Positions 28,005-43,275 of a stretch of DNA of 64,000 nucleotides are shown in pieces; the first letter of the stretch is position 1; every line of letters begins with the position of its first letter. Source of the DNA: Minisyncoccota bacterium (GTDB lineage Bacteria; Patescibacteriota; Minisyncoccia; Phycocordibacterales; JAACPR01); NCBI GenBank assembly GCA_041674225.1, contig JBAYWG010000002.1, positions 34,841 to 98,840 on the forward strand, written 5' to 3'. A program made the translations under genes and the position numbers. A model generated the notes under the pieces. It made no database searches, had not been told where the DNA came from, and saw only the letters and a program-made list of their open reading frames with translations.

Positions 28005-28012
28005 TTAATCTC

Positions 28013-29461: not shown

Positions 29462-29493
29462 TACTATGCGGACTTGTACTAGTCCGAACTAGT
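29462..29493 (-). repeat. R0: degenerate copy of the tRNA-3'-end-like direct repeat (tactatgcggacttgtactagtccgaactagt)
   Basis: Aligns to consensus tgctccgcggacttgggctagtccgaaccagt. Confidence 0.6.
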
Positions 29494-29525
29494 TTAGTGG
29501 GTAGAGAAAAACTAAACAATAAGAA

Positions 29526-29561
29526 AACCCACTGCAAGCAGGGGTTCCTGTTGAGTGGGTT
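29526..29561 (-). terminator. hairpin terminator for cassette 29576..29806
   Basis: aacccact...agtgggtt. Confidence 0.45.
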
Positions 29562-29575
29562 CAAGCTCCTAATTG

Positions 29576-29806
29576 TTATAGAGTGTTCACAAAGATAATC
29601 AATTGCATAAGTAGAAGACTGAGTTCGTAATCCACGATGCGATCATAGTCGATCTTTGTTTTTGTTGCTGTAAACATCTCTTCGACAATCAGTTGCTGTT
29701 CAGGGTTCAGGTACTTCTGTGTATTCACACCTCTGGAAACAAAATCTGCCATGCTTCCGTAATTGCTTTCTAGTGATTTTACAAAGTTGAATGCGTTTTG
29801 CGTCAT
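29576..29806 (-). CDS. cassette gene, hypothetical (76 aa); N-terminus and 5'UTR paralogous to 30840..31097
   Basis: Shared upstream ttggttgattgtgaaa and MxQ.aF N-terminus. Confidence 0.4.
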   Translation of the reverse strand: MTQNAFNFVKSLESNYGSMADFVSRGVNTQKYLNPEQQLIVEEMFTATKTKIDYDRIVDYELSLLLMQLIIFVNTL

Positions 29807-29903
29807 CTGTTTTCGGTTGGTTGATTGTGAAAAGTAAAAAAATCTTTCAAATAAATAATAACACTCTATAATTATTTGTCAAATATTTAATCAACAGACA
29901 TGT

Positions 29904-29919
29904 GTTGGTCCGAACCAGT
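29904..29919 (-). repeat. R1: truncated repeat (ttggtccgaaccagt)
   Basis: 3' half of the consensus repeat only. Confidence 0.45.
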
Positions 29920-29935
29920 TGGTAGCGTAGGAAAA

Positions 29936-29967
29936 TAAAAAACTCCACTATCTTGCAATAGTGGGTT
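29936..29967 (-). terminator. hairpin terminator (ccactat-cttgca-atagtgg)
   Basis: Near-identical to the terminator at 25384..25410. Confidence 0.5.
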
Positions 29968-29984
29968 TCTGGGTTGAGTGTGAT

Positions 29985-30167
29985 TTATAATCCAAAATCT
30001 TCTTCCTTTGGCATTTTTTTCAACCACCGCTCTCTCATGATTTTGGCATTTTCCTTCCTTTGTGAACCTTTTCCCATTAAGTATACGTACTCATTGAAAC
30101 TAAATGGACCTTTAAGCCCCCAACAGAAGAAGCTCCAAATGTATCTTATCTTTCGGACTATTTTCAT
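29985..30167 (-). CDS. cassette gene, hypothetical (60 aa)
   Basis: ORF between R2 and its terminator. Confidence 0.35.
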   Translation of the reverse strand: MKIVRKIRYIWSFFCWGLKGPFSFNEYVYLMGKGSQRKENAKIMRERWLKKMPKEEDFGL

Positions 30168-30211
30168 TCTAATTTAGATAAAAACATTATTATAAATCTT
30201 TGTCAAATATT

Positions 30212-30243
30212 TACTCCGCGGACTGAGACTAGTCCGAACCAGT
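30212..30243 (-). repeat. R2 repeat (tactccgcggactgagactagtccgaaccagt)
   Basis: Matches the consensus. Confidence 0.65.
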
Positions 30244-30275
30244 AACAATATTTGAAAATAATTATACAAAATAGA

Positions 30276-30309
30276 ATCCGCCCAGATCCTTAGTCGGAGC
30301 TGGGCGGAT
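30276..30309 (-). terminator. hairpin terminator (atccgcccag...ctgggcggat, 10-bp stem)
   Basis: Inverted repeat downstream of cassette 30351..30644. Confidence 0.55.
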
Positions 30310-30350
30310 GAAGTATCGGGTAGAACTTTTTCGAATTACACTGCCTCTGT

Positions 30351-30644
30351 CTAGAAACGAAGCTTAGCGATGATTTGTTCAAAAAGGTTCTCACCTTCAA
30401 CGATTTCTGCACATGTAACTATGCACGGATGGTTGTCGGGGTGCTGTTGAACGTGGATGTGTAATTCCACAAACGGTGGCCACACCCGAATCTCTTGCTT
30501 GCCATCATGAATAAGAACGTGTGCGTTTGTCACATCATCATCTTCGCTGAGGAGTGTGACGTTGGATATTCTCGATAAGTATTCCTGGAGAGCTGTGGCA
30601 AGAGGACTATCTTCAAGTCTGATACAAATCAAAGTGTGGTTCAT
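30351..30644 (-). CDS. cassette gene, hypothetical (97 aa)
   Basis: ORF with an upstream consensus promoter. Confidence 0.45.
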   Translation of the reverse strand: MNHTLICIRLEDSPLATALQEYLSRISNVTLLSEDDDVTNAHVLIHDGKQEIRVWPPFVELHIHVQQHPDNHPCIVTCAEIVEGENLFEQIIAKLRF

Positions 30645-30734
30645 GGGTATTGTAGTTTATGTTGTTTACTTGGACAGAATGCGAAAGTACTTTTAAACAA
30701 TATTATAATACATATTTATAAATATGTCAAACAA
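30645..30734 (-). promoter_or_regulatory. consensus sigma70 promoter TTGACA-17-TATAAT abutting R3
   Basis: Minus strand reads ggagcattgTTTGACAtatttataaatatgtatTATAAT. Confidence 0.55.
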
Positions 30735-30766
30735 TGCTCCGCGGGCTTGAGCTAATCCGAACTAGT
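30735..30766 (-). repeat. R3 repeat (tgctccgcgggcttgagctaatccgaactagt)
   Basis: Matches the consensus. Confidence 0.65.
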
Positions 30767-30789
30767 GTGGTGGTGTAGGAAATAAAAAA

Positions 30790-30832
30790 CCCACTATCTC
30801 ACGACAGGGATTTCCTGGTTGAGATAAAGGGT
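30790..30832 (-). terminator. imperfect long hairpin terminator
   Basis: ccc-act-atctca...tgagat-aaa-ggg. Confidence 0.4.
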
Positions 30833-30839
30833 TGTGGAT

Positions 30840-31097
30840 TCAACGGCAACTGTTGATATAGGTCGCGAGCGACAGGGTCATTTCGTAGCTTTCGATATCA
30901 GCATCTACGTCACCTTTAACGGTAACGGGTTTCGAAAAGATACTTGTTACTTTAGTGTAAACAAAAAACTGTTGTCGTTCACTCAGGATGGCTTCTTCAT
31001 TGATGGCGTCTCTGAGTTCACCGAGGAAGTGCCATTGGAAAGAGTCGGTTTTGAATTCCTTTGACATTTCATTTAAAAAATCTCTCGCGCTTTGCAT
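30840..31097 (-). CDS. cassette gene, hypothetical (85 aa)
   Basis: Paralogous N-terminus/UTR to 29576..29806. Confidence 0.4.
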   Translation of the reverse strand: MQSARDFLNEMSKEFKTDSFQWHFLGELRDAINEEAILSERQQFFVYTKVTSIFSKPVTVKGDVDADIESYEMTLSLATYINSCR

Positions 31098-31168
31098 TCG
31101 TTGGTTTTTGGTTGATTGTGAAATAACTTCTTCAATAAAATATAATAAATATTCAGTTTAGTCAATTT

Positions 31169-31200
31169 TGCTCCCTTTAGTGGACGAGTTTAGAACTCAG
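31169..31200. repeat. R11: degenerate repeat (tgctccctttagtggacgagtttagaactcag...gggttg)
   Basis: Partial match to consensus; about 80 percent match to R12. Confidence 0.4.
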
Positions 31201-31296
31201 AATTGGGTTGAAATAAAAAGGGAAGTTGAAATTTTCGGGATTTGGAGTTTGTTTCAAAGCATAGAAATAAGTAATTAATTTTAGTATCATTGGAGG

Positions 31297-31719
31297 ATGA
31301 GTAAACCATCTATGACACCCGTTGGAGCATATTACTTGTTCATATTTTTTATTGTTGGTGTTGCATTTGTATTATTTTTACATTTAGCACTAGTTCAAGA
31401 GGTTGTATTTTTTCAAAACATATATACAAATGGAATTATTATTTTGAGTTTTGTGATGTTATCCCTAGTTGTCCCTTTTAATATTAAGGAAATCATAGGA
31501 CAAAAAATAATCCCAATTTTTAAAATGTTTATAGCAATTAGAGGTGGTAGAGGAAGTTTTGACTTATTTGAATCAGAAGTGCAAGAACGAGCGAGGTTGC
31601 GCGTTGAATTGGATAGTAAAATAAAATCCAATACATTACTTTATTCTGTTTTTGTTGTACTTATTATTATCTCAATAATCGGCTTTATTGGTTTAATGAT
31701 TTATTCCGCAACTTTTTAA
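31297..31719 (+). CDS. membrane protein, hypothetical (only plus-strand cassette)
   Basis: GGAGG RBS 13 nt upstream; 4 TM helices. Confidence 0.5.
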   Translation: MSKPSMTPVGAYYLFIFFIVGVAFVLFLHLALVQEVVFFQNIYTNGIIILSFVMLSLVVPFNIKEIIGQKIIPIFKMFIAIRGGRGSFDLFESEVQERARLRVELDSKIKSNTLLYSVFVVLIIISIIGFIGLMIYSATF

Positions 31720-31731
31720 ACACTTTACTAT

Positions 31732-31786
31732 GCTTTACAATTACTCGGATACAGGGACGCATTTAGAACTTTTGATTGGGTTAGTT
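31732..31786. repeat. R12: degenerate repeat (ggacgcatttagaacttttgattgggttag)
   Basis: Direct repeat of R11 flanking the plus-strand gene. Confidence 0.4.
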
Positions 31787-31857
31787 TGTATCCAAATCCT
31801 GAATATCATTTAGAAAGAATAGGTAAGTTGTTGGTTTTAGCGAGATATTTTGTGTAA

Positions 31858-32355
31858 TTAATTTCTTTTTCTTAATAAACTTATGATTGCAGATAGACAA
31901 AGTATTCCTTCAGCTACAGCTCCTCCGATTGATCCTGAAAAAATATCATACAAAATCCAGCTTAGGTGTGATGGTATAAAAAGTACGCGCATTTTTTTGG
32001 TATTAAGTTGCCAACTTGCTACGATCGCAAATACTCCACCCACAAACGCTGCAATACCCCAAAGTGATTCAAGTGTGAAATATGTAGAAATACCAAGTAA
32101 TAAAATAAATAGCCACATTACAATCGGTTTACCAATCCAATTTGTATTGGTTTTAAATGAAAAGAGAGCCAATCGTAGTGCTGCAACGCTAGCAAGAGCT
32201 GCACCTGTGTATGCCTCAATAAGAATAAAGTGTGTAATCCAAAATACAAAACTTAAAAGTTGAACCAAGAGAATAGTTTTTCTTGAATTAAAATGATACG
32301 AAGAAAACCAGATACCCAAAGCAATTATAGCTAGTAATTGAATTAAAATTGCCAT
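31858..32355 (-). CDS. YgjV-like inner membrane protein
   Basis: 165 aa, multiple TM; resembles the YgjV family. Confidence 0.45.
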   Translation of the reverse strand: MAILIQLLAIIALGIWFSSYHFNSRKTILLVQLLSFVFWITHFILIEAYTGAALASVAALRLALFSFKTNTNWIGKPIVMWLFILLLGISTYFTLESLWGIAAFVGGVFAIVASWQLNTKKMRVLFIPSHLSWILYDIFSGSIGGAVAEGILCLSAIISLLRKRN

Positions 32356-32373
32356 ACATTGAGTTTATCAGAT

Positions 32374-32416
32374 AAAAGAAAAAACGGTGCAGACCTCAAA
32401 TGAGAATCTGCACCGC
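32374..32416 (-). terminator. hairpin terminator (cggtgcaga...tctgcaccg)
   Basis: 9-bp stem with A-run on the plus strand. Confidence 0.5.
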
Positions 32417-32440
32417 TAGGTGAATTGTTTTGTGATACTT

Positions 32441-33154
32441 TCAGAACTTCATCGAAATTCCGACACCACCAGCGATCTCGCTGTTGCCCTGGCCTGTGAG
32501 GGCTCGGGTGGAGAAGAACAACGTTGTGGTGTCATTCAATTCCAGGTTCAGCGTAAGATTGCTGCCGAAGTAAAGTCCAGGAGTGACTCCGAACCCGTCG
32601 TCATAAGACATAAACGGATTGACGTCGACTGAGACTTTATCAGCTACGGGAAAACGAGCATTGATGCCCGTGGAAATGTTCCAACCATTTCCAAGGAAAT
32701 TGTTACTGGTGTGGTAGTAGCGAGGTTGGATATACCAGCTCGTCGCAACTTCATCCCAGACAACAAAATCTTTTCCGAAAGTGACGTGAGCTGTGACGAT
32801 GTCGTCCCAGACCGATGCAGTTGGATTCACATTCCAGATACCAACTCCAGTGTTGAAGTTGAAACCGAGGATTTTGTGAGCCCAACCGAGGTTGAGATCA
32901 ATTTCGTCGCCCGCCGATGTTCCGCCGAGATCTTCAGAAGACCATATGCTTGCGTTGAAGCCGTGTGGCAGATTGATGACCAGAAGCGATTGAAGGCTGG
33001 GCTGGTCACTGACAACGACGGGGACTTGAAACAGCAGGTATTTGTCCCACACGGATGTGGAAACAAGACCTGAAAATTCGTAGCCCATTTCTTCAGCTTT
33101 GGAGGTGTTGCAGAAACCGATTGTAAGTATCACGATGGTAAAGAACTTTTTCAT
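32441..33154 (-). CDS. secreted beta-rich protein, OMP beta-barrel-like (signal peptide, C-terminal Phe)
   Basis: MKKFFTIVILTIGF signal; alternating hydrophobic pattern; ends ...ISMKF. Confidence 0.45.
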   Translation of the reverse strand: MKKFFTIVILTIGFCNTSKAEEMGYEFSGLVSTSVWDKYLLFQVPVVVSDQPSLQSLLVINLPHGFNASIWSSEDLGGTSAGDEIDLNLGWAHKILGFNFNTGVGIWNVNPTASVWDDIVTAHVTFGKDFVVWDEVATSWYIQPRYYHTSNNFLGNGWNISTGINARFPVADKVSVDVNPFMSYDDGFGVTPGLYFGSNLTLNLELNDTTTLFFSTRALTGQGNSEIAGGVGISMKF

Positions 33155-33434
33155 TTGTACAATAGAGTAGGTTTGATTTTGGTGTAGATTCACAAGTTAC
33201 TGATCACTCTTTGAAAGAGTCAGTTATGAAGCTACTTCCAGAATCAAAATAACTATATATTCCAACGAAATTTACTAATATTATAGCAATAAATATGCAT
33301 TATGTCAAGTCTATGTAGTGTAGGTCAAAGACGGGTTTTAAAATGCTATTGTAAAAAGTTCGAACCCTATTTACAGGTACGAGATTTCAGACTGTTGACT
33401 CTATGTTTATCAACGTGTTTTAGACGTTTTATTT

Positions 33435-33466
33435 TGCTCCGCGGACTTGCACTGGTCCGAACCAGC
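33435..33466 (-). repeat. R4 repeat
   Basis: tgctccgcggacttgcactggtccgaaccagc. Confidence 0.65.
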
Positions 33467-33491
33467 ACTTTGAAATTTATTTAATCTAAAA

Positions 33492-33977
33492 TTACTCAAC
33501 AATCTTAATTCTGTCAGAAGAAGGCATATCTTTTGATGTAACCTCAATAACATCTGAAGGTTCAACTTCTTCATAGGACCTCCATTCCATTGAATCAGTA
33601 GTTGCCACTTGGTCTCTTTTATATGGTTCGAAGTTGTTTTTATCAAAAACATACACAAAGCCTTTTTTATCTTTTACCTCTTTTAATACGTCCTCTGAAG
33701 AAACTCTAAATTCCGCATTACCGTCTCTTATGCCAAAACCACTTGTGTGATTTATAGAAACATTTTCTCTATTTATAAGCGCTCTAAAAGTTGCAAGTTC
33801 TGCATATGGAGTTGCTGAAACTGCTGGATTACCATCTAAGGTTGTTTCATCTGGTTTTGACCAATCAGGAACATGTCTTCCTTGTCGTGGTTCTAAGGAT
33901 TTGATGCTTCCATTAGGCGAACCATGAAATACATGTTTTCCTTCTTGCTCAAGTTTTTTAAGTTTTTCTATGGACAT
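33492..33977 (-). CDS. cassette gene, hypothetical (161 aa)
   Basis: Driven by a copy of the tRNA-proximal promoter flank. Confidence 0.45.
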   Translation of the reverse strand: MSIEKLKKLEQEGKHVFHGSPNGSIKSLEPRQGRHVPDWSKPDETTLDGNPAVSATPYAELATFRALINRENVSINHTSGFGIRDGNAEFRVSSEDVLKEVKDKKGFVYVFDKNNFEPYKRDQVATTDSMEWRSYEEVEPSDVIEVTSKDMPSSDRIKIVE

Positions 33978-33989
33978 AATTTAATTTTT

Positions 33990-34060
33990 TATACAAAAAG
34001 TATACCAAAGTTCGAACCTTCGGTCAGGGGTTAAAAATATATGTTTTAAAATAAAGACGA
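33990..34060 (-). promoter_or_regulatory. copy of the tRNA-Asn downstream flank carrying promoter CTGACC-17-TGgTATACT
   Basis: About 85 percent identical to 37330..37400. Confidence 0.5.
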
Positions 34061-34062
34061 AA

Positions 34063-34094
34063 TAAAGTGCTCCGCGGACTTGGGCTAGTCCGAA
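34063..34094 (-). repeat. R5 repeat (exact consensus)
   Basis: tgctccgcggacttgggctagtccgaaccagt. Confidence 0.7.
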
Positions 34095-34112
34095 CCAGTA
34101 TTGTGGTGTGAA

Positions 34113-34146
34113 ATAAAAATTGCGCCCTGTAGCTTGCTTTAGCTAA
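34113..34146 (-). terminator. hairpin terminator (tgcgccct...agggcgca)
   Basis: 8-bp GC stem plus inner stem. Confidence 0.55.
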
Positions 34147-34170
34147 AGGGCGCAGTTGAAAACATTTTTC

Positions 34171-34473
34171 TTAGTGCGGTAGCCGCTTATAACCAGTTTT
34201 CTTGTTTAGGATGCGATGGTAATTGGTCGATGTTGGATGAGGAATGACTCTCACCTCCACTAGTTCGAATTCAGGAACGCTGAGGAGGATGTTGTGCTCA
34301 ACTTCGGTCACCATCAATCTGACGGTCGTATTAAAACCACTACCACGGCTGTTAATCGAAGAAAACATGACCTTTATTGTTTCTCCAACTCGTGGCACTG
34401 CGTTTCTTTTTACATCAACGATATTGTAATACCACAAACCGTTTGCAAAAAGGTTTAATTGAACTCGGTACAT
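34171..34473 (-). CDS. cassette gene, hypothetical (100 aa)
   Basis: ORF between R5 and R6. Confidence 0.4.
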   Translation of the reverse strand: MYRVQLNLFANGLWYYNIVDVKRNAVPRVGETIKVMFSSINSRGSGFNTTVRLMVTEVEHNILLSVPEFELVEVRVIPHPTSTNYHRILNKKTGYKRLPH

Positions 34474-34586
34474 CTTTGATAATTTGGTGTATGGTTTGGC
34501 ACACCTGGGTTCCTCCTAGAACCACTAGCCGTTTTAAAATAACTTCTTCGTTAAATTACAATGAAAAATATATAAAGTCAAATATT

Positions 34587-34618
34587 TGCTCCTCGGACTT
34601 GGGTTGGTCCGAACCAGT
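34587..34618 (-). repeat. R6 repeat
   Basis: tgctcctcggacttgggttggtccgaaccagt. Confidence 0.65.
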
Positions 34619-34642
34619 GTTGCGGGGTAGGTAAATAAAAAG

Positions 34643-34675
34643 GGCCTGAAAGACATTCAGTCAAACAGGCCTTTG
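34643..34675 (-). terminator. hairpin terminator (agggcctg...caggcctt)
   Basis: 8-bp stem with one G-U. Confidence 0.45.
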
Positions 34676-34681
34676 GGTTTG

Positions 34682-35017
34682 TTAATCAATGATTTCGAAT
34701 ACGAAATTCTGAGCTTCATCGGCGTCGCCGTCTGGTCCCATGACGCATTGACACGCGCCGTCTTTTAAAGGACCTTGAATCACGAAACCGTTTTGAAGTT
34801 GAATTTCAATACCCCAAGCTAAATTTAAACTGTTATCTTCGTCTGAATTTTTATCGTGCCGATAAAAATTGAGACCAGATACGGTCGAAACTATTGTTCC
34901 AATGCTGTGTTCCTCATGACGAGTTACAGAACATTTTTTCCCAATGATTTCTGATGCTGACGGAAGACCAGCTTCGGTTAGTTCAGAATTAAGAACTTGC
35001 AAGTTTTGGTTTTTCAT
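34682..35017 (-). CDS. cassette gene, hypothetical (111 aa)
   Basis: ORF between R6 and R7. Confidence 0.4.
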   Translation of the reverse strand: MKNQNLQVLNSELTEAGLPSASEIIGKKCSVTRHEEHSIGTIVSTVSGLNFYRHDKNSDEDNSLNLAWGIEIQLQNGFVIQGPLKDGACQCVMGPDGDADEAQNFVFEIID

Positions 35018-35073
35018 AGAATAAAATACATTTTTTTTAAATTAACATAATATAACATCTATGTCAAATAATT

Positions 35074-35105
35074 TGCTCCGCGGACTTGTGCTAGCTCGAA
35101 CCAGT
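35074..35105 (-). repeat. R7 repeat; abuts the stop codon of the GNAT gene
   Basis: tgctccgcggacttgtgctagctcgaaccagt. Confidence 0.65.
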
Positions 35106-35558
35106 TTATTTAGATAAATCTTTAATTATGTGAGTTGCTTTATGTTCCTCAGTTTTTTCAAATCCAAGAGATTCATAGAGTGAAATTGCGACTGGATTTT
35201 TTGTAGAAAGACGCAGGGATGTGAAGTGTTGTTTTGCTCTGTTTATAATGAGCTTCATTAAAATTTTTGATAATCCTAATCCTCTATATTTTTTCATAAT
35301 ATAAACATGACGCACCCTACCAACTTCTGGATTTTCAGTATAAGGGTCTTGATTTAAACCACCTAATCCAATGATTTCATCATCTATTGTAAGTCCCCAA
35401 AGTTTTTCACTTGGTTTTGAGAAAGTGTTTACACCACTTCGCCATTCATCGATAGTTTTTTGAATAAAAAGGTCTCCATCAAGTGTAGATTCGTTAGCCA
35501 TATCTTGAAGTATTGATATATTCGAATCATTAATTTCTATAATTTTATAGTCAGGCAT
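35106..35558 (-). CDS. GNAT-family N-acetyltransferase (AAC-like size)
   Basis: Acetyl-CoA motif RGLGLSKILMKLI; 150 aa; TGaTATAAT 6 nt upstream (leaderless). Confidence 0.6.
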   Translation of the reverse strand: MPDYKIIEINDSNISILQDMANESTLDGDLFIQKTIDEWRSGVNTFSKPSEKLWGLTIDDEIIGLGGLNQDPYTENPEVGRVRHVYIMKKYRGLGLSKILMKLIINRAKQHFTSLRLSTKNPVAISLYESLGFEKTEEHKATHIIKDLSK

Positions 35559-35580
35559 TATTAAATTATATCAAATGTAT

Positions 35581-35612
35581 TTGCACCGCGGACTTGGGCT
35601 AGCTCGAACCAG
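35581..35612 (-). repeat. R8 repeat
   Basis: tgcaccgcggacttgggctagctcgaaccagt. Confidence 0.65.
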
Positions 35613-35632
35613 TTTGTAAATAAAAACACGAA

Positions 35633-35665
35633 AGCCCCAACCGAAGTCGAAGCTTCGTGGGGCTG
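35633..35665 (-). terminator. hairpin terminator (agcccca...tggggct)
   Basis: 7-bp stem plus extended pairing. Confidence 0.45.
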
Positions 35666-35667
35666 TT

Positions 35668-35865
35668 TCAGATGAAAAGCATGACAATGAACGGAGCAAT
35701 TAAGGCGCCCGTTACCAAAGAGAGTGTCCAAGTTGTTTCCTGTGTCCATTTGCGGTTTTTGTCGATGGACTTGATGGTGAGACCAACAACCAAAGCAATG
35801 ACGATAATGAGAACTAGGCACAAAACTTGAAAACCAAATGACGATGGTGTTCCTGATGGTAGCAT
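35668..35865 (-). CDS. small membrane protein (65 aa) with strong RBS
   Basis: AGGAGG 8 nt upstream of the ATG; two TM helices. Confidence 0.5.
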   Translation of the reverse strand: MLPSGTPSSFGFQVLCLVLIIVIALVVGLTIKSIDKNRKWTQETTWTLSLVTGALIAPFIVMLFI

Positions 35866-35945
35866 CTTATACCTCCTTTCTATTTTAATGTTTAAACTAA
35901 AGAACGAATCTTACTTATATAATAAATATTACATAACGTCAATTT

Positions 35946-35977
35946 TGCTCCGCGGACTTGTGCTAGTCCGAACCAGT
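35946..35977 (-). repeat. R9 repeat
   Basis: tgctccgcggacttgtgctagtccgaaccagt. Confidence 0.65.
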
Positions 35978-36011
35978 GTGGTGGGGTAGGAAAAGACAAT
36001 TGGGATGGTAA

Positions 36012-36722
36012 CTACTTTATAAACTCTTGTATCATTTTCTTCGTGTATGAGTCCACTTTGTCCTTATTTTCTAAAAGGTGTTGTTTACAATATCCAGCAT
36101 CTTTGTTCTTATAAAAAATATCGATTAACTGGGATTCTTCTTCGTTAGCTTTTTGTTTTATGTTTGTGTAAGAAAAAGGGAAGTGTTCATTTCTCTTGAG
36201 TTGAGAATAGTAAATTATTCTCATGATTCCTTTGAGATGATATTGCACAAAACCATCTCCTACATTTGTTGAATCATCCCATTGGTCTCTGATTATTTTC
36301 TTTATTTCCAGACTAATTAATTCATCTGGTATAGCAGGGTTGTTAGTAAAGTCTTCAGTTGAATATATTTTTCCGAATACTTGCTTCCAGTCTTTCATAT
36401 CTGAAAGTAATATTCTTGGATGTATCACTGTGGTAATTGAGCTATCTTTTCCGACACCTTCTTTTAGCTCGTCTTCTCTGATTACATTAAATCCAAAATA
36501 TTTGAAATCATCAAAACATTCATTAATCTTTTCTTTAATAGAAGATTGGTCAATCGAATTCTCTGACTTAACTATTGCGATAATATCTATGTCACTTGTT
36601 TCAATATCAAACTCTCCAGTAGTTATTGAGCCCCATAGATATGCTGAAAGTAATCCATCTTTCTCATATTCTTGAAAGAATTTATTTAAATGCTCCTCTA
36701 GATTGTTTTTATCGAATTTCAT
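36012..36722 (-). CDS. nucleotidyltransferase, ANT(3'')(9)/Lnu-like
   Basis: NTase motif YLWGSITTGEFDIETSDIDIIAIV (compare AadA LYGSAVDGGLKPHSDIDLLV); helical C-terminal domain; TATAAT 6 nt before ATG. Confidence 0.6.
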   Translation of the reverse strand: MKFDKNNLEEHLNKFFQEYEKDGLLSAYLWGSITTGEFDIETSDIDIIAIVKSENSIDQSSIKEKINECFDDFKYFGFNVIREDELKEGVGKDSSITTVIHPRILLSDMKDWKQVFGKIYSTEDFTNNPAIPDELISLEIKKIIRDQWDDSTNVGDGFVQYHLKGIMRIIYYSQLKRNEHFPFSYTNIKQKANEEESQLIDIFYKNKDAGYCKQHLLENKDKVDSYTKKMIQEFIK

Positions 36723-36776
36723 TTTGACATTATAGCAAAGTCTTAAAACTCTACTAATAAAATCGGATTTTTCAAT

Positions 36777-36808
36777 TGCTCCGCGGACTTGGGCTAGCTC
36801 GAACCAGT
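36777..36808 (-). repeat. R10 repeat
   Basis: tgctccgcggacttgggctagctcgaaccagt. Confidence 0.65.
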
Positions 36809-36819
36809 TTGGAATGTCA

Positions 36820-37329
36820 TTAGTCCTGTATCTCCATTAAAACAGAGTCCATTACTTCTCTGGGTTCCATATTTGTAGTATCAATTACCTTGAAACCTAA
36901 GTGGCTACGATTTTTAAAAATAGAAATATTATTTCTAGCTCGTTCTTCTGTTAGGTCACCGTTATTTTCTTGAGTTCTTTTTACTACTCTTTGAAGAGCA
37001 ATATCTGGATTAGCATGTAATTGAAATTTATAACAATGAATTTTTCTATCTTGAGCAAGAGTCGTGTAGAAATCAATCTCTTCCTCCGTTTTAAATGGAT
37101 TCTCAACTATTACAGATAATCCAAGGTCTAAGTATTTTGCTGCCATTACCATGGTTACTTCTCGGGCTATTTGATTATCTTGAATTCCTCTTTCAAAGTC
37201 AGATATAAACCTTTTAATTTTATCAAAACCAACGATTGCTGTTCTAGGAAGTTCTTTTGATAAGGATTTTGATAGTGTGGTCTTTCCAGCTCCAGACATT
37301 CCGTCTAATAGTATTAATTTTTGTTTCAT
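36820..37329 (-). CDS. P-loop kinase, chloramphenicol-phosphotransferase-like (AAA_33 family)
   Basis: LILLDGMSGAGKTTLSKSL...AIVGFD resembles CPT MIILNGGSSAGKSG...LAFGVD; 169 aa. Confidence 0.55.
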   Translation of the reverse strand: MKQKLILLDGMSGAGKTTLSKSLSKELPRTAIVGFDKIKRFISDFERGIQDNQIAREVTMVMAAKYLDLGLSVIVENPFKTEEEIDFYTTLAQDRKIHCYKFQLHANPDIALQRVVKRTQENNGDLTEERARNNISIFKNRSHLGFKVIDTTNMEPREVMDSVLMEIQD

Positions 37330-37400
37330 ATAAAAAGTATACCAAGGTTCGAACCTTCAGTCAGGGGTTAATAATATATGCTTTAAAATAAAGGTGTACT
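37330..37400 (-). promoter_or_regulatory. promoter immediately downstream of tRNA-Asn (CTGACC-17-TGgTATACT) driving the kinase gene
   Basis: Minus strand cccctgactgaaggttcgaaccttggtatactttttatATG. Confidence 0.45.
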
Positions 37401-37404
37401 AAAG

Positions 37405-37478
37405 TGCTCCCCCGGCAGGATTCGAACCTGCGACCCATCGCTTAACAGGCGATTGCTCTACCGCTGAGCTACAAGGGA
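37405..37478 (-). tRNA. tRNA-Asn (anticodon GTT)
   Basis: Minus strand TCCCTTG-TA-GCTCAGCGGTAGAGC-A-ATCGC-CTGTTAA-GCGAT-GGGTC-GCAGGTTCGAATCCTGC-CGGGGGA-G; cloverleaf with U1-A72 and discriminator G as in E. coli tRNA-Asn. Confidence 0.85.
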
Positions 37479-37548
37479 ATGTAACAACTTTGCTATGTTA
37501 TCAATCCAAAAGGCTTATGTCCAGCTTAATTTTTGCTATATTTGAGAC

Positions 37549-37773
37549 ATGTATATTCATTTAAAAGTTCACACCAAAGCTAAAGATGAAATTTTCAAAA
37601 AATTAAAAGAAGATCATTTTGAGGTGTGGGTTAAAGAGCCGGCTGAGCGAAATTTGGCTAATAAAAGACTTATCGAGATAGTTCGGGAAAATTTTCCAGA
37701 AGCAAAAAAGATAAAATTGGTTTCCGGACACCACTCTCCATCAAAGCTTTTTTCAATAGATTTTGAAGACTAA
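37549..37773 (+). CDS. DUF167 (YggU-like) protein
   Basis: VKEPAERNLANKRLIEIV...VSGHHSPSK. Confidence 0.55.
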   Translation: MYIHLKVHTKAKDEIFKKLKEDHFEVWVKEPAERNLANKRLIEIVRENFPEAKKIKLVSGHHSPSKLFSIDFED

Positions 37774-37797
37774 GCTTTTGTGATAAAATAGAAGAGT

Positions 37798-38169
37798 ATG
37801 GCAATAAATTTTCATATAAAAACTACAAATATTGACCTTACACCAGAAGTGAGCTCACAAGTTCACGAAAAACTGAGTGTGGTTGAGAAATATTTACCAG
37901 TTCAAGAAGATAGAGAAATTTTGGCAGAAGTTGAATTAGGTTTAGTTTCAAAGCATCATAAAAAAGGTGATGTGTATCGAGGAGAAATAAATGTTAGTTC
38001 AGATGGAAATTTTTACCGAGCTGTTACAAAAAAGTCATCTGTAGTTGAAGTAATGGATGATTTGAAAGATCAAATTGGAAAAGTGATCAAAAGAAAAACA
38101 AACAAAAAAGATTCTTTGTTTAAAAAAGGAGGAAGATTATTTAAAAAAATGTTGAAAGGACAAAAATAA
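37798..38169 (+). CDS. hpf: ribosome hibernation promoting factor (RaiA/HPF family)
   Basis: MAINFHIKTTNIDLTPEV...; basic C-terminal tail. Confidence 0.7.
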   Translation: MAINFHIKTTNIDLTPEVSSQVHEKLSVVEKYLPVQEDREILAEVELGLVSKHHKKGDVYRGEINVSSDGNFYRAVTKKSSVVEVMDDLKDQIGKVIKRKTNKKDSLFKKGGRLFKKMLKGQK

Positions 38170-38170
38170 A

Positions 38171-38815
38171 ATGGGAACTTTAAAACAAGTAGTTGTGGCG
38201 ATTTTGGTTTTGGTATTGTTGGCAGGAATAATTATTTTTGCTACAAACAAAGTTGAACCAAATAAAATTGATAATAATAACGTAGCAGAAGTGAAGGAAG
38301 AGCAGAAATATAATTTAACTGAACTTAACGAAAAAAATATGAAGGCAACAATACAAACAAATAAAGGAAATATAGTTTTGGAATTATTTGCTGAACAAAC
38401 TCCAAAAACTGCAGGTAACTTTGCAAAATTAGCAAAAGAAGGATTTTATGACGGAACAAAATTTCACCGAGTGATTGATGGATTTATGATTCAAGGTGGT
38501 GATCCTCAAACAAAAGATGATTCACTTCAAATGAGATGGGGAACAGGTGGACCTGGGTATCAATTTGAAGATGAGATTGTTGCAGGTTTGAGCAATGTTG
38601 TTGGAACTATTTCAATGGCGAATGCTGGTCCAAACACAAACGGTAGTCAATTCTTTATAAACGTTGGAGACAACACTTTCCTAGATGGTAAACACGCTGT
38701 GTTTGGAAAAGTTATTGAAGGAATGGATATTGTGATGATGATTTCTCAAGTTCAAAAGAATGAAAGGGATGTGCCAGTAGAAGCGATTGTTTTGGAAAAA
38801 GTTACTGTTGAATAA
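38171..38815 (+). CDS. peptidyl-prolyl cis-trans isomerase, cyclophilin type, membrane-anchored
   Basis: FHRVIDGFMIQGGDP and SMANAGPNTNGSQFFI. Confidence 0.85.
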   Translation: MGTLKQVVVAILVLVLLAGIIIFATNKVEPNKIDNNNVAEVKEEQKYNLTELNEKNMKATIQTNKGNIVLELFAEQTPKTAGNFAKLAKEGFYDGTKFHRVIDGFMIQGGDPQTKDDSLQMRWGTGGPGYQFEDEIVAGLSNVVGTISMANAGPNTNGSQFFINVGDNTFLDGKHAVFGKVIEGMDIVMMISQVQKNERDVPVEAIVLEKVTVE

Positions 38816-39671
38816 ATAAAGAATAATCAATTTCTTTTTTTCCCTCAGGAATGACACGCAAAATCTCAAGCGTGTCATTTTTGTATTGTGCAGAAACAAT
38901 TTTCACACGAATTTGTTTTCCATTTTTTTCTGTAAAGAAATATGCTCCTGGGTGTGGAGTGTAGGCCATAATTTTTAGGAAGTTTTTTCGAGGTGAATCT
39001 GAAAGTTTAATTTCTGCGTCAGATTTTTCGATTTTTTTTGTGAAAGTTGCATCTGCGTGATTTTGCTCAACAGGTTCAATTTCACCGGATATGTAGTGCG
39101 GCAAAATTTTTGCCAAAATTTTGCCGCCAACCTCAGCCAACTTTGCAGATACAACATTTTTATTTTCCCATTCTTTAAATTCAACAATTTCTTGAGACAA
39201 AATAGGTCCATGATCAACTTTTTCATCAATCAACATTATTGTGACACCAGTTTTTAATTCATCATTTAAAATCGCTGTTTCGATCGGTGAAGGTCCTCGG
39301 TATTTTGGCAGAAGTGAAGGATGAACATTTACGATTCCTTTTTTTGGTATTTCTAAAACATCTTTGGGAATAATTTTTCCATAAGACACAACAACGAATG
39401 CATCCCAATCTAAATTTTTTCCGTCCTCATCTTTATAACTTTTTAGTTGCACAAAGAAATCTCCAGAAAGTCTTTCAGGTTGAAAGTTTTTAGTTCCGTT
39501 TTCTTCAGCCCAAATTTTTACAGGGCAGGGAGTTAATTTAAGACCTCGACCTTGCAAACTGTCCGGAGTTGTAATAATTAAATTCGGCATTAAGTCTGCA
39601 GATTTGAGTTGATTTAAAACATCAACGCTAAATTCGCTCGTGCCAAAAAATATGTAATTATTTTTTTTCAT
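38802..39671 (-). CDS. fmt: methionyl-tRNA formyltransferase
   Basis: NVHPSLLPKYRG motif; downstream of def. Confidence 0.85.
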   Translation of the reverse strand: MKKNNYIFFGTSEFSVDVLNQLKSADLMPNLIITTPDSLQGRGLKLTPCPVKIWAEENGTKNFQPERLSGDFFVQLKSYKDEDGKNLDWDAFVVVSYGKIIPKDVLEIPKKGIVNVHPSLLPKYRGPSPIETAILNDELKTGVTIMLIDEKVDHGPILSQEIVEFKEWENKNVVSAKLAEVGGKILAKILPHYISGEIEPVEQNHADATFTKKIEKSDAEIKLSDSPRKNFLKIMAYTPHPGAYFFTEKNGKQIRVKIVSAQYKNDTLEILRVIPEGKKEIDYSLFIQQ

Positions 39672-40167
39672 TATTTAATTTTAGTTCAGTTATGTTTGTG
39701 GCTTTGTCGATAAATAAAACGCCGTCTAGATGATCTATTTCGTGTTGAAAAATTTGTGCAAGTAGTCCAGCAGCTGAAACACTGAATTCATCTCCATTTT
39801 CATCTTTTGCTTCCACAGTCACCCGGCTAGATCTTTTTACTACTCCATAAAGCGGACGAACAGAAAGACATCCTTCATCCATTTTCTTTTTATCTTTTGA
39901 AATTTTTGTGATAACAGGATTTATGTAAACAAGTGGTAGATCTTTTGGCGCAGATCCGTCTTTCAAAATTTTTGGACTCACAACAAAGATTCTTTTTGTG
40001 ATTGCTATTTGAGGAGCGGCCAGTGCGACACCATCGTCTTGAGATTCTAATGCTTCGCGCATATCTTCCAGATTTTTCAAAAGTTTAACAGAACCGAATT
40101 CTTTTTCGGCTACTTCATCTGCAATTTTCCGCAGTGCTTTATGTCCGTCTTGAACAATTTCTACCAT
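39658..40167 (-). CDS. def: peptide deformylase
   Basis: GVALAAPQI, EGCLS, HEIDHLDG motifs; start placed at Met19 of ORF (MVEIVQDGHKALRK). Confidence 0.85.
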   Translation of the reverse strand: MVEIVQDGHKALRKIADEVAEKEFGSVKLLKNLEDMREALESQDDGVALAAPQIAITKRIFVVSPKILKDGSAPKDLPLVYINPVITKISKDKKKMDEGCLSVRPLYGVVKRSSRVTVEAKDENGDEFSVSAAGLLAQIFQHEIDHLDGVLFIDKATNITELKLNNEKK

Positions 40168-40214
40168 ATGGCCTAGTATATAGGAATTTTCAAAAGAAAA
40201 AACCCCCGAAGGGG

Positions 40215-40754
40215 TTACCAAGTTTCGCCATTTGGTTTTTCTTTATATTCTTTCAGTTTATAGACTGTTGTCTCATTAGCTTCGAGTTTTTCCCATCTTT
40301 TTGCAGGATTATTGTCGTTTTTGCGACTAAACAATTCAATTACTCTTTCCTTGATTAGACCCAGAGAAGGATGTAAATCGCTCTTGTTTATTTTCTCTGT
40401 TTGCAACTCTGTTCTTACTATTTGGAAATAGCTCGAGTTAGATTCAGAAATCTCTCGGACTGATTTAATAGGAATCGAATTAAAAGTGACACCCTTTTTC
40501 ATCAGTATTAATATTTTGTATTCTGGAACATATCCTCCGAAACCAACATTGTATTGCAGTACAATCACTGCAATTTTGCGGTCAAAGATTAACACCGGAT
40601 TAGTGATCATCTCACCTTTCTGGAGTAGGAGAGCAATTGTTTCCTCGAGTTTTTCGCAAAAATTACGAAACTTAAACATATCTTCTACACTGTTCATTTG
40701 TACTGTTGTTTGGAATTCAAATTCAAAACTACACTTCCAAAAATAAAAAGTCAA
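40215..40754 (-). CDS. hypothetical protein, tandem paralog A
   Basis: Paralogous to 40785..41291; terminator aacccccgaaggggtt overlaps its stop. Confidence 0.45.
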   Translation of the reverse strand: MTFYFWKCSFEFEFQTTVQMNSVEDMFKFRNFCEKLEETIALLLQKGEMITNPVLIFDRKIAVIVLQYNVGFGGYVPEYKILILMKKGVTFNSIPIKSVREISESNSSYFQIVRTELQTEKINKSDLHPSLGLIKERVIELFSRKNDNNPAKRWEKLEANETTVYKLKEYKEKPNGETW

Positions 40755-40784
40755 TTAAATAAAAAACCCCCGGAGGGGTTGTGG

Positions 40785-41291
40785 TTATTCTGGTGAAATA
40801 GTATAGGTGACTTGTTTTTCCGCATACAATTCCTCCCATCCATGTTGTGGAATTTCGGTGTTAATGTTAAAAATTCCTCCCATAACTTTTTTCAGCTGCT
40901 CGATTGCCTCAAGTTGTCTCTTGGCGAAAAATAATTGCTTATCTTCTGCGGGTTTAAATTCCGTTGTGGATTTAAAACTGGATGTAAGAACTAGATTTTT
41001 TACACAAGTATCCCATTCCATTTTGGTAATTACTTCAAGATTACCACAAGGATCCCAATTGAATCCCTTTGGAATTATCACAATCAATTCAACTACTGTG
41101 AATTCCGGAGGAATCCCCGCATCACCTGAGTTTTCACAGATAACTAAACCTGCTAATTTTCTGTCATAGATTTGAATTGGACTCACAATATCAAATCCTC
41201 TTTTCTGAAAATTTAATAAGTCAGTGATAGAATCAGTCAATTCATTAATAAAGTTTACAAAAGCATACGCATCTTTTATACCTGGACTCAT
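40785..41291 (-). CDS. hypothetical protein, tandem paralog B
   Basis: Shares IYDRK...PEF...KG motifs and duplicated UTR/terminator (aacccccggaggggtt). Confidence 0.45.
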   Translation of the reverse strand: MSPGIKDAYAFVNFINELTDSITDLLNFQKRGFDIVSPIQIYDRKLAGLVICENSGDAGIPPEFTVVELIVIIPKGFNWDPCGNLEVITKMEWDTCVKNLVLTSSFKSTTEFKPAEDKQLFFAKRQLEAIEQLKKVMGGIFNINTEIPQHGWEELYAEKQVTYTISPE

Positions 41292-41370
41292 TATAATGTA
41301 CTTAATTGGTTAGTTTTGAATTCAAATCTCAAAATACACCTCTAAAAAATAAAAGTCAATTTGCGAAAAA

Positions 41371-43275
41371 TTAAAGTACACTCGGAGTATCAACGATGAT
41401 TTTGAATTGTGGGGGAAGAGTCATTAATTTCTTTCGGAGCGTTTCGTCAGGCCAACTTTTTGGATCAATTTTCAAAACTCCGTTCCAAATCATTTTACCT
41501 TTTTGTCTTTCTGTAAAAGCTGGATAAACCAAAAGATCATAAGGCTCTAGAAATTTCTTTGCTTCCAAAATCGCTTTCTCGGCAGCTTTCGGTGTACCTC
41601 CAACAGAAATTTTTATCAATCGCACAAAAGGCGGATAGCTATATTTTTTTCGATCACAAAATTCATTTCGATAAAAATCCGCTAAGTTTCCTTGTCGAGC
41701 ATTTTCAAAAATAGTATCGTCTGCACGCCGTGTACTGATTTGAAATCTTCTTGTAGCTTTGGCACGTAGACGAAGCAGAATTCTCAAAATTCTTTCACGA
41801 ATAGCAAAGTCTGGAATTGAAAAAAGAGAATCAATCGAAGCAATTAAAACATTTTCAACTGGTTCGTTCATATAGTGAAGTGCCATTTCTGTCCCGATTA
41901 ATACACTTCCTGGTTTTGCATAAAAAGCCTCAATAATTTCTCGTGCTTGTTTAGAAGTCTTTGCATGCTGACTATCTAAAATAAATAAATTTAAATCAGG
42001 AAATGTTTCTTTTATTTTTTCTGCGACACCTTCGACTCCGATTCCAAGCATTTGCAATCTCCAGCTATCACAATGCGCACATTTTTCTCCTGCTCTCCGC
42101 ACATCTCCGCAAGTGTGACATTGAAAAATATTTCCACCTTGTGTTGGATCTTTCCCGTACAAAACTACGGGAGTACTACAGTTTTTGCATATCACCACAG
42201 TTCCACAATCAGAACACACAATAGATGGCGCTAATCCACGGCGTGCTGTGAAAATAAAAGTATTTTCGTTTTCTGATTTTGCGCTCTTTAAAATCTCAAA
42301 AGTTTCGTTTGATAAAATTGAAAAAACATTTCCAGAATTTGAATAATCTTTTTTCATGTCGATTATTTTTGATTCTGCTGTTGAAAGAGCACGAAACTTC
42401 AATGTCCCTTCTTCTAAAAATTCATGAGTGTCATATCGAGACAATGTCTCTACGCGCAAAGCAATATCTCCCAAGAAAAATCTCGCTCCGATAATGCTCG
42501 CATAATTTTCTGCGCAATTTCTAATATCTATATACGGCATAAATTGAGTTCGATATGAATTAGAACTTTCTTGTTCAATTATGATTGTGCCAATATCGTG
42601 GCGTGGAATTGAGATAAAGCTTCCAGTTCCGATAATCAAAACCGGTCGATTGTGTTCGATGACATTGTTCCAAGATTTTATAAGTTGAGATTTTGTCATT
42701 GCGCTGTTGAAAGTGAAGGTGTGGTCTTCGATTCCTTTAGAAATTAATTTCTTGGTTCTTTCTATGTCTTCGATTGTTGGACAAATAAAAATCACTGAAC
42801 TATTTCTCGCAAAAGATTCTCGAACCAAACTTTTATAACTCGCATATCTTTCATCAAACTGATCTTGAATTACATATTTTTCACTTTGTTCATTTAAATC
42901 ACAGGGAGATATTTGAGATGGTGGATTTTTTAATTCTTTTATATTTTCAAATATTTTTTTCGGAACCAGTGCGCTGATAATTGCTCCTGTTGATGTTGCA
43001 AAATGTTCAGCCGATTTTCCACAAGCTTCTATGAATTGATTTTGTAGGATTGTATTTTTTGAAATTCCACGAATTCTTTTTAAAGTAAATTTTTGAGATT
43101 TTAATTCTTCTTTGCTTGCGAGCGCTGGTTTTTTATTCAAAACTATTCCGTTGACAATCTTTTTCCGTAGTTCAATTGTCACTAAAGATCCTATCTCAAT
43201 ATCTTTGGTCGAAAAATAAGACAGGTGCTCCACCCGAATACTTTTAGTTAATGGCATTATCTCGAGAATATACAT
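41371..43275 (-). CDS. priA: primosomal protein N' (PriA) homolog with degenerate ATPase motifs
   Basis: Aligns to E. coli PriA helicase core (PVLIIGTGSFISIPRHDIGTIIIEQESSNSYRTQ vs IVIGTRSALF...VIVIDEEHDSSYKQQ); Cys4 zinc ribbons CSDCG...CKNC...CHTCG...CAHC; Walker A replaced by DERYASYKS and DEEH by EQES. Confidence 0.7.
   Translation of the reverse strand: MYILEIMPLTKSIRVEHLSYFSTKDIEIGSLVTIELRKKIVNGIVLNKKPALASKEELKSQKFTLKRIRGISKNTILQNQFIEACGKSAEHFATSTGAIISALVPKKIFENIKELKNPPSQISPCDLNEQSEKYVIQDQFDERYASYKSLVRESFARNSSVIFICPTIEDIERTKKLISKGIEDHTFTFNSAMTKSQLIKSWNNVIEHNRPVLIIGTGSFISIPRHDIGTIIIEQESSNSYRTQFMPYIDIRNCAENYASIIGARFFLGDIALRVETLSRYDTHEFLEEGTLKFRALSTAESKIIDMKKDYSNSGNVFSILSNETFEILKSAKSENENTFIFTARRGLAPSIVCSDCGTVVICKNCSTPVVLYGKDPTQGGNIFQCHTCGDVRRAGEKCAHCDSWRLQMLGIGVEGVAEKIKETFPDLNLFILDSQHAKTSKQAREIIEAFYAKPGSVLIGTEMALHYMNEPVENVLIASIDSLFSIPDFAIRERILRILLRLRAKATRRFQISTRRADDTIFENARQGNLADFYRNEFCDRKKYSYPPFVRLIKISVGGTPKAAEKAILEAKKFLEPYDLLVYPAFTERQKGKMIWNGVLKIDPKSWPDETLRKKLMTLPPQFKIIVDTPSVL

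Follow-up and report, generated by a model that had tools for sequence, protein, structure and literature searches.

The 64-kb stretch of contig JBAYWG010000002.1 analyzed here (the window) belongs to a Candidatus Paceibacterota genome of the candidate phyla radiation (CPR, Patescibacteria) and contains three minus-strand genes that encode a 169-aa P-loop kinase, a 236-aa nucleotidyltransferase (NTase), and a 150-aa GNAT N-acetyltransferase. We consider it probable that these genes are three independent one-gene cassettes, numbers 1, 2, and 4 of an array of about 13 units anchored at a tRNA-Asn gene, and that they encode stand-alone enzymes restricted to Patescibacteria. An earlier note on this DNA had read the same open reading frames (ORFs) as a triad of enzymes related to chloramphenicol phosphotransferase (CPT), to the aminoglycoside and lincosamide nucleotidyltransferases (ANT/Lnu), and to the aminoglycoside acetyltransferases (AAC), carried on the tRNA-proximal cassettes of an integron-like array. 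The ORFs with their sizes, strand, and positions, the proximity to the tRNA, and the integron-like arrangement were all confirmed; the resistance affinities and the triad were not.

The array is defined by a repeat of ~32 nt (minus strand, ACTGGTTCGGACTAGCCCAAGTCCGCGGAGCA), which occurs in 11 copies, all on one strand, between positions 29462 and 36808, compared with none expected. Apart from these and two degenerate copies (~31748-31778 and 31168-31199) within a 2.7-kb gap, a profile search of the whole 64 kb found no further copy outside the array. The repeat punctuates one-gene cassettes whose typical order is repeat, promoter, one ORF, in some cases a terminator-like hairpin, and the next repeat. 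Single-ORF units measure 324-831 bp, with 0-107 nt between the stop codon and the following repeat, and in most units a promoter-like sequence lies right after the preceding repeat; consensus promoters (TTGACA-16/17-TATAAT) directly follow the repeats at 30730, 29882, and 29456. The array starts at the 3' end of tRNA-Asn (...GGTTCGAATCCTGCCGGGGGAGCA), which forms its anchor, with the kinase gene directly downstream. An Rfam scan of the array found only the tRNA. The features, in the order in which they follow the tRNA, are listed here.

37406..37478, minus strand: tRNA-Asn (GTT) (ARAGORN; Rfam tRNA, 69.9 bits)
37330..37405, minus strand: leader of cassette 1 (repeat-family comparison, promoter scan)
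36820..37329, minus strand: cassette 1, 169-aa P-loop kinase (ORF and Pfam)
36777..36808, minus strand: repeat R1 (ACTGGTTCGAGCTAGCCCAAGTCCGCGGAGCA), boundary between the kinase and NTase cassettes (repeat profile, 40.1 bits)
36012..36722, minus strand: cassette 2, 236-aa nucleotidyltransferase (ORF and Pfam)
35946..35977, minus strand: repeat R2 (repeat profile)
35668..35865, minus strand: cassette 3, 65-aa peptide with two predicted transmembrane segments (ORF)
35582..35613, minus strand: repeat R3 (repeat profile)
35106..35558, minus strand: cassette 4, 150-aa GNAT N-acetyltransferase (ORF and Pfam)
35074..35105, minus strand: repeat R4, abutted by the GNAT stop codon (repeat profile)
29462..35073, minus strand: rest of the array, cassettes 5 onward (ORFs and repeat profile)

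From cassette 5 onward, the ORFs encode 111, 100, 161, 250, 165 (Imp-YgjV), 140 (plus strand), 85, 97, 60, and 76 aa, and the further repeats end at 34587, 34068, 33435, 30735, 30212, 29888, and 29462. The 250-aa ORF at 32441-33193 shows that the kinase, NTase, and GNAT cassettes are not the three largest, as had been supposed. The enzyme triad is a positional coincidence, an accident of array order, because the three genes never co-occur elsewhere and the 65-aa cassette lies between those for NTase and GNAT. A functional triad or operon was rejected on these grounds and because the genes have separate promoters.

The cassettes differ in base composition. The GC content at third codon positions (GC3) ranges from 0.19 to 0.55 across the array, compared with 0.20-0.25 in core genes, which indicates that the cassettes are of mixed origin. 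The three enzyme genes are host-like (GC3 0.19-0.28). Four cassettes (32441-33193, 35668-35865, 34171-34473, and 30351-30644) reach a GC3 of 0.43-0.55 against ~0.2 in the core, and the 250-aa ORF has a GC content of 0.48; these values indicate acquisition from higher-GC donors. One of them is cassette 3, which has a strong Shine-Dalgarno sequence (GGAGG), a terminator, and a GC3 of 0.47, a composition that is foreign by this measure.

Arrays built in this way, with the cassettes shuffled, were also found at tRNA-Asn in at least three further lineages of Patescibacteria. In a related Parcubacteria metagenome-assembled genome (MAG; locus L001), the syntenic locus (fmt, PPIase, HPF, DUF167, tRNA-Asn ... 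NUDIX ... PIF1) contains nine copies of the same repeat. Locus L009 has nine copies of a repeat variant that start after tRNA-Asn, a more distant genome (L015) has 15-16 copies of the variant TTCCGAACATCCTCTAAGGTTCGGAGCA directly after its tRNA-Asn, and L021 has yet another variant. The NTase cassettes of the window and L001 are 79.6% identical over 818 nt, bounded by repeats, and have unrelated neighbors. The NTase gene occurs in further contexts in L021, where a repeat bounds it on the upstream side only, and in L004. In L015, the homologue of the GNAT also forms a single-gene cassette with repeats at its boundaries. Cassettes for both enzymes thus behave as discrete units found in different arrays and orders. 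None of the other window cassettes recurs in any other locus that we compared; since only the three enzymes do, the cassette pool is very diverse.

Among species-representative genomes, a strict and a relaxed pattern of the repeat returned only one related MAG; a metagenome scan gave five loci, and viral contigs gave none. In both the window (19097-20794 and 28013-28468) and L001, conserved markers flank the variable region: fmt, PPIase, HPF, DUF167, and tRNA-Asn at one end, NUDIX and a PIF1-type helicase at the other. The part of the window that extends from the last repeat (29462) to the helicase contains many small ORFs of unknown function, which may be older cassettes with decayed repeats. 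Read by eye, the L009 array appears to include a RelB/RelE-type pair (7289-7881), an APH-fold kinase (3916-4803), and an EEP-family nuclease (2235-3155). The first cassette of L015 (2874-3476) has a weak match to PF10706 (Aminoglyc_resit) in a precomputed gene table.

Turning to the enzymes themselves, Pfam supports the three superfamilies named in the earlier note (AAA_33 for the P-loop kinase, NTP_transf_2 for the NTase, and Acetyltransf_1 for the GNAT), and the motifs it had quoted for kinase and NTase are present in the sequence. All three have conserved relatives and therefore, by sequence comparison, are genuine genes, and all three appear catalytically intact.

The kinase matches AAA_33 (2.8e-13, 50.8 bits, cut-off 27) and Zeta_toxin (27.8 bits, cut-off 22.3), whereas the Pfam model for CPT (PF07931), with a cut-off of 22, gives only 20.7 bits. 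The Walker A motif GMSGAGKTT and Asp-36 are conserved, KLILLDGMSGAGKTT...TAIVGFD is present, and the enzyme has the aspartate after strand 2 and the lid arginines of the AAA_33 or PNK-CPT-gluconate-kinase-like kinases. We found 36 conserved relatives. The best NCBIfam matches were PSTK, bacterial Pnkp, and unnamed kinases, and the model for the gentamicin-resistance kinase Gar scored 1.1e-5, with 25 bits against a cut-off of 170. Sequence and profile searches of the PDB returned the Pnkp kinase domain, fungal kinases, and adenylate-kinase-like proteins; CPT was not among the matches at E<=1.

The predicted kinase structure (pLDDT 93.6) was about equally similar to PSTK, 2rhm, 2bdt, APS kinase, Pnkp, gluconate and NMP kinases, and CPT, with TM-scores of 0.7-0.77 to PSTK, Pnkp, APS kinase, and CPT. 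The CPT structure 1qhs had the highest TM-score (0.77) yet ranked only 32nd by E-value among the fold neighbors. Judged by sequence and predicted fold, the kinase is a generic AAA_33-type member of the PNK/CPT/GntK-like clade, which at the level of hidden Markov models (HMMs) fits no characterized subfamily. In another locus (L013, 6119-8492; also L014), a homologue with 61% identity lies in divergent orientation beside a T4 Rnl1-type RNA ligase (PF09511). This neighbor hints at an RNA-repair role for the kinase family in some lineages.

For the NTase, NTP_transf_2 (PF01909) was matched at 1.4e-4 (22.6 bits, cut-off 21), as was Polbeta, in both cases over the N-terminal 70 residues only. The motif WGSITTGEFDIETSDIDII is present (G31-S32...D44-x-D46), and Ser-43, Asp-44, and Asp-46 are invariant across 76 sequences of the family. 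With the motif in place and an HMM match above threshold, the protein falls within the pol-beta nucleotidyltransferase superfamily. Its C terminus appears to be a helical bundle of ~150 aa that has no Pfam match. Seven relatives were word-indexed, and a profile search extended these to 108 cluster representatives of ~230-245 aa. Against the PDB, the 76-sequence profile matched minimal NTases best (1ylq, 9e-7; also 9xbd and 2rff); AadA followed at 0.014 over residues 8-67 only, which is the N-terminal motif, and KNTase at 0.45.

In NCBIfam, the sole match to the NTase was MntA at 0.0076; no ANT or Lnu model matched, and DUF4111, KNTase_C, and Aminoglyc_resit (PF10706) matched none of the 76 family members. 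The C-terminal bundle is nearest to HEPN toxins, DUF86, and HI0074, all similarities being weak. The Rx4-6H motif of HEPN proteins is not conserved in the family, and only Lys-164 and Tyr-185 are nearly invariant in this domain. These comparisons suggest an MNT-type domain fused to a HEPN-like or KNTase-like helical domain in a KNTase layout. The KNTase or AadA-type ANTs and the MNT-HEPN pairs resemble the NTase in a pol-beta domain with GS...DxD, in a helical bundle of ~130-150 aa (putative in the NTase) that follows it, and in a total length of ~236-260 aa, but neither group has any sequence relationship to it beyond the motif. The poor predicted structure (pLDDT 64), for which Foldseek was uninformative, counts against our assignment.

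The GNAT belongs to its superfamily by its match to Acetyltransf_1 (PF00583) at 7e-14 (52.5 bits, cut-off 20.7) and by the acetyl-CoA-binding motif A (R92-G-L-G95-L-S), in which Arg-92 is invariant and Gly-95 nearly so. The AAC-like Q/RxxGxG motif that had been claimed for it is there as YRGLGLS, an imperfect version (R-x-x-G-x-S, compared with Q/RxxGxG/A). There are 46 conserved relatives, and the nearest solved structures in a PDB profile search are an uncharacterized GNAT (3gy9, 1e-19, full length) and a diamine acetyltransferase. AAC(3)-XI appeared at 7e-4 in the PDB profile search. The NCBIfam AAC(6') models gave 13-16 bits against cut-offs of 225-390.

Together, these comparisons bear directly on whether the enzymes are bona fide antibiotic-inactivating proteins, a CPT- or Gar-like kinase, an ANT/Lnu, and an AAC, and the array a resistance island. 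CPT is among the closest folds of the kinase and its HMM falls just short of threshold, the integron-borne Gar model is matched weakly, the L009 array has the apparent APH-fold kinase (by eye from the translation), and an ORF of L015 has the weak PF10706 match; these points favor such a reading. On the other side, the resistance-specific models lie far under their cut-offs for Gar and AAC(6'), no ANT or Lnu model matches, the ANT-type domains were detected in none of the 76 NTase family members, and the nearest relatives of all three enzymes are uncharacterized or non-resistance enzymes. The families are, moreover, restricted to Patescibacteria and host-like in GC3, and some members sit in housekeeping neighborhoods. 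We therefore regard a resistance function as improbable, and on the sequence evidence the three enzymes cannot be assigned to the CPT, ANT/Lnu, or AAC families. This result corresponds in essence to the outcome that the earlier note had itself named as speaking against its proposal, namely generic kinases or a minimal MNT-HEPN-type NTase and no resistance-family affinity. The other possibility it had raised, enzymes that modify some other toxin or metabolite, may hold.

A second alternative is that the enzymes act on macromolecules and that the array is a store of defense or stress modules, as proposed for sedentary chromosomal integrons. In that case, the kinase would serve RNA repair by phosphorylating polynucleotides or tRNA, and the NTase, of toxin-antitoxin or defense origin, would be an AMPylase of the MNT type joined to its HEPN-like partner; the GNAT would acetylate proteins or aminoacyl-tRNA. 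This is in agreement with PSTK, a tRNA kinase, and the Clostridium polynucleotide kinase Pnkp as top fold and HMM neighbors of the kinase, with the RNA ligase beside its 61%-identical homologue, with the proximity of the NTase N terminus to minimal MNT antitoxin-type NTases and to the PADLOC candidate PDC-S09 and of its C-terminal bundle to HEPN toxins, DUF86, and HI0074, and with the apparent RelB/RelE-type pair seen by eye in L009 (adjacent ORFs of 108 and 87 aa). Defense systems in integron cassettes have been described (preprint 10.1101/2024.07.02.601686). Yet every one of the similarities is weak, the HEPN motif is not conserved, and the GNAT cassette has no antitoxin partner, with only 23 nt between the preceding repeat and its ATG. 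PADLOC gave no confident defense assignment for kinase, NTase, or GNAT, and the RNA ligase link was seen in one lineage only. We consider this alternative unlikely as a whole.

The named relatives of all three enzymes are without exception from Patescibacteria, the unnamed ones being metagenome proteins and the 108 NTase profile hits carrying no taxonomy; on this basis, the three families appear restricted to Patescibacteria. In our interpretation, each enzyme most likely acts on its own low-molecular-weight or nucleic-acid substrate. Homologues outside arrays were found after tyrS, after ychF, and beside the T4-type RNA ligase.

The next question concerns how the array was assembled. In single-stranded DNA (ssDNA), the repeat has a minimum free energy of -0.5 to -5 kcal/mol (z -3 to +2 against shuffled sequences), so no significant ssDNA or RNA hairpin was detected, and the short stem cannot form in common variants of the repeat (GGACT to GAGCT). 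Because the hairpin is insignificant and the stem is lost in variants, these data argue for recognition of the repeat as a double-stranded DNA sequence rather than as an attC-like fold or RNA element. A structured tRNA-like RNA and a terminator were considered as roles for the repeat and rejected, the hairpin being weak and lost in variants.

Sites of the attC type are imperfect palindromes of 57-141 nt that form ssDNA hairpins with R''/R' boxes. A classical integron, or a cluster of attC sites without integrase (CALIN), in which an IntI-type tyrosine recombinase acts on folded single-stranded attC, would account for the mostly one-gene, one-orientation cassettes with a conserved, imperfectly palindromic site between them. 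The likeness to sedentary chromosomal integrons and CALINs extends to cassettes with differing neighbors and to a diverse, mostly unknown cargo that includes GNATs, NTases, small proteins, and, here apparently, a toxin-antitoxin pair. The array nevertheless shows neither an intI-attI platform nor an attC-type fold. We found no intI or tyrosine recombinase in the 64 kb when ORF translations were read by eye (at least 130 aa overall, at least 70 aa over 14000-30500, and at least 40 aa over 30000-42000; Pfam was applied to the array cassettes only). The ~32-nt repeat has no significant hairpin or R''/R' boxes, and in several cassettes a promoter-like sequence comes immediately after the repeat that precedes them. 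The anchor is the 3' end of tRNA-Asn, where insertion would occur, not an attI next to intI. An integron in this sense is therefore very improbable.

The terminal block of the repeat is also that of the tRNA-Asn 3' end. In L009, repeat and tRNA are identical over the final 12 nt of the repeat (GTCCGCGGAGCA), and the window repeats match this L009 version rather than their own tRNA (..CCGGGGGAGCA), which implies exchange between lineages. A leader of ~100 nt follows either the tRNA end or a repeat, and homology begins at GGAGCA; because it starts there in both settings, the exchange point would lie in or next to the GGAGCA block. In the window, the leader is represented by a direct duplication of 98 nt with 85% identity, at 33976-34073 (after repeat 6) and at 37313-37410 (downstream of the tRNA), and it is also found after tRNA or repeats in L009 and L008. 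The leader of cassette 1 contains a promoter-like cTGACT-17-TATACT with the ATG ~7 nt downstream, and the 17-nt spacer of the duplicated leader encloses the perfect palindrome AAGGTTCGAACCTT, which could be an operator or protein-binding site.

Repeat and tRNA differ in their geometry. GTTCGRA lies 28-29 nt from the terminal GCA in the repeats and 23-24 nt from it in the tRNA; this holds for the window/L001, L009, and L015 families and also for L021. The +5-nt offset of GTTCGRA concerns the left half-site only. For the large serine integrases, attB and attP differ in the spacing between the ZD-binding motif and the crossover, which is 5 bp shorter in attB (PMC3783163). In its left half-site, the repeat thus differs from the tRNA by the 5 bp that distinguish attP from attB.

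A 560-aa protein with Resolvase, Recombinase, and Zn_ribbon domains, a large serine recombinase, is encoded at tRNA-Asn in L001. Its element is inserted exactly at the GGAGCA end of the tRNA, the reading frame of the recombinase extends into the tRNA, and a typical repeat is found on the distal side. This ~7.5-kb element at the tRNA 3' end (2269-9900) also encodes an S8 peptidase (763 aa) beside an AAA ATPase (373 aa), as well as small helix-turn-helix proteins; the peptidase and ATPase pair may be a defense-like module. Interruption of the tRNA by the recombinase was considered and rejected: what splits the tRNA is a group I intron, and the intact 3' end precedes the start of the recombinase element. 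The intron, of ~260 nt, splits tRNA-Asn in the anticodon loop in both L015 (2474-2840; Rfam Intron_gpI, 80.5 bits) and L001 (2091-2423). ARAGORN misses these split tRNAs; the tRNA-Asn of the window is intronless.

We propose that cassettes would be captured and shuffled by site-specific recombination, in which a repeat would recombine either with the tRNA 3' end or with another repeat and the exchange would take place in or beside the shared GGAGCA block. The recombinase would be supplied in trans, and a large serine recombinase is the most plausible candidate because of the +5-nt geometry, the recombinase element at the same point in L001, and the precedent of the staphylococcal cassette chromosome (SCC). 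As an answer to the question of mechanism, we hold capture by a trans-acting large serine recombinase with somewhat less than even confidence; the alternatives are a tyrosine recombinase acting on a weak 10-6-10 dyad in the repeat and homologous recombination between att scars.

SCC and SCCmec elements (CcrAB/CcrC) resemble the array in their serial insertion at the 3' end of a conserved gene (rlmH), their tandem arrays with internal att repeats, and the existence of members that lack a recombinase and are served in trans. A serine recombinase is documented for SCC and would be its counterpart here. The two differ in scale, SCC elements being multigene units of 10-100 kb, whereas the present units are single ORFs of ~0.3-0.8 kb, up to 16 per array and with a tRNA target. 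They differ also in that a recombinase is found here at only one related locus.

Several observations weigh against this mechanism. The +5-nt offset counts once, as a character inherited within a single repeat superfamily, rather than as three independent observations. No recombinase was noted in the window ORFs read by eye, in a gene table for ~8 kb beyond its right end, or near the arrays of L008-L011 and L015 (large ORFs of L008, L010, and L011; ORFs at the distal array ends), and tblastn of the L001 recombinase against all loci gave no match elsewhere. By eye in an anchored alignment, the right half-sites showed no dyad symmetry with the repeat, which is atypical for att sites of serine integrases. 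Without a directionality factor, hybrid sites are not substrates for canonical serine integrases, and serial insertion would therefore need a relaxed, Ccr-like enzyme. Finally, a strain comparison via HPF, comprising one contig that breaks at the kinase cassette, revealed no circular intermediates or strain-level array variants.

Assemblies from other samples break at or near the cassette boundaries. L020 (a Logan contig of 7628 bp) stops at the kinase cassette, 11 nt short of repeat R1. NTase relatives also lie on short contigs (P0002 and P0006, ~1 kb; P0004, 1.6 kb), and L021 breaks near a cassette boundary. Repeat-induced breaks or population-level variation in array order would produce such ends at cassette boundaries.

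The repeats could instead be decayed att scars of tycheposon-like islands that target tRNAs, or REP-like or terminator repeats shuffled by homologous recombination, with no dedicated capture. Genes for tRNAs are classic integration hotspots at which partial tRNA repeats arise and older elements are pushed down, and the tycheposon islands use both tyrosine and large serine recombinases (tycheposon preprint). The tRNA-proximal position of the recombinase-bearing element in L001, the finding that the distal window repeats are the most degenerate, and the lack of a linked recombinase at most arrays would fit this explanation. It agrees less well with units that are uniformly tiny and carry their ORF 0-107 nt before the next repeat, with the absence of integrase or replication-gene remnants from them, and with arrays in at least four lineages that each contain 9-16 repeats in a well-conserved form. 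In addition, a systematic difference of 5 nt sets the repeat apart from the tRNA, of which it is not a copy; it also has no conserved hairpin, which speaks against a terminator or RNA role.

The comparison with the tycheposons of Prochlorococcus follows the same lines. Both involve streamlined genomes, flexible genes beside particular tRNAs, tRNA-derived att repeats, and newer arrivals that push older elements distally. Tycheposons have their own integrase and replication modules, kilobase-scale cargo, and one or two elements per island, whereas the units here are integrase-less single genes in long regular arrays, with a repeat that is a 5-nt-expanded mimic rather than a partial tRNA copy. 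We judge the att-scar explanation unlikely. The array is the noteworthy feature of the region and, from its sequence organization, probably a site-specific cassette-capture platform at tRNA-Asn. Our searches of the literature found no description of CPR cassette arrays of this kind. Tentatively, we suggest that Patescibacteria may possess a previously undescribed, non-integron platform that would combine single-gene cassettes, many with a promoter of their own, a ~32-nt tRNA-mimic site of attP-type, 5-bp-expanded geometry at each cassette end, serial insertion at the 3' terminus of tRNA-Asn, exchange between lineages, and a large serine recombinase acting in trans.

CPR bacteria have tiny genomes and are generally thought to be poor in classical mobile elements. 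Storage and exchange of single genes through a compact tRNA-Asn platform would explain how these organisms maintain their accessory-gene diversity. If a serine recombinase drives it, the platform would represent a second, independent evolutionary solution to the integron problem, an integron analogue in ultra-small symbionts, and it could also yield compact tools for site-specific recombination whose att sites are short and well defined. The kinase, NTase, and GNAT would then be three items of its cassette pool. They are not recognizable resistance genes and should not be counted as part of a CPR "resistome"; as three enzyme families that appear specific to Patescibacteria, they offer tractable entry points to what these symbionts modify chemically.

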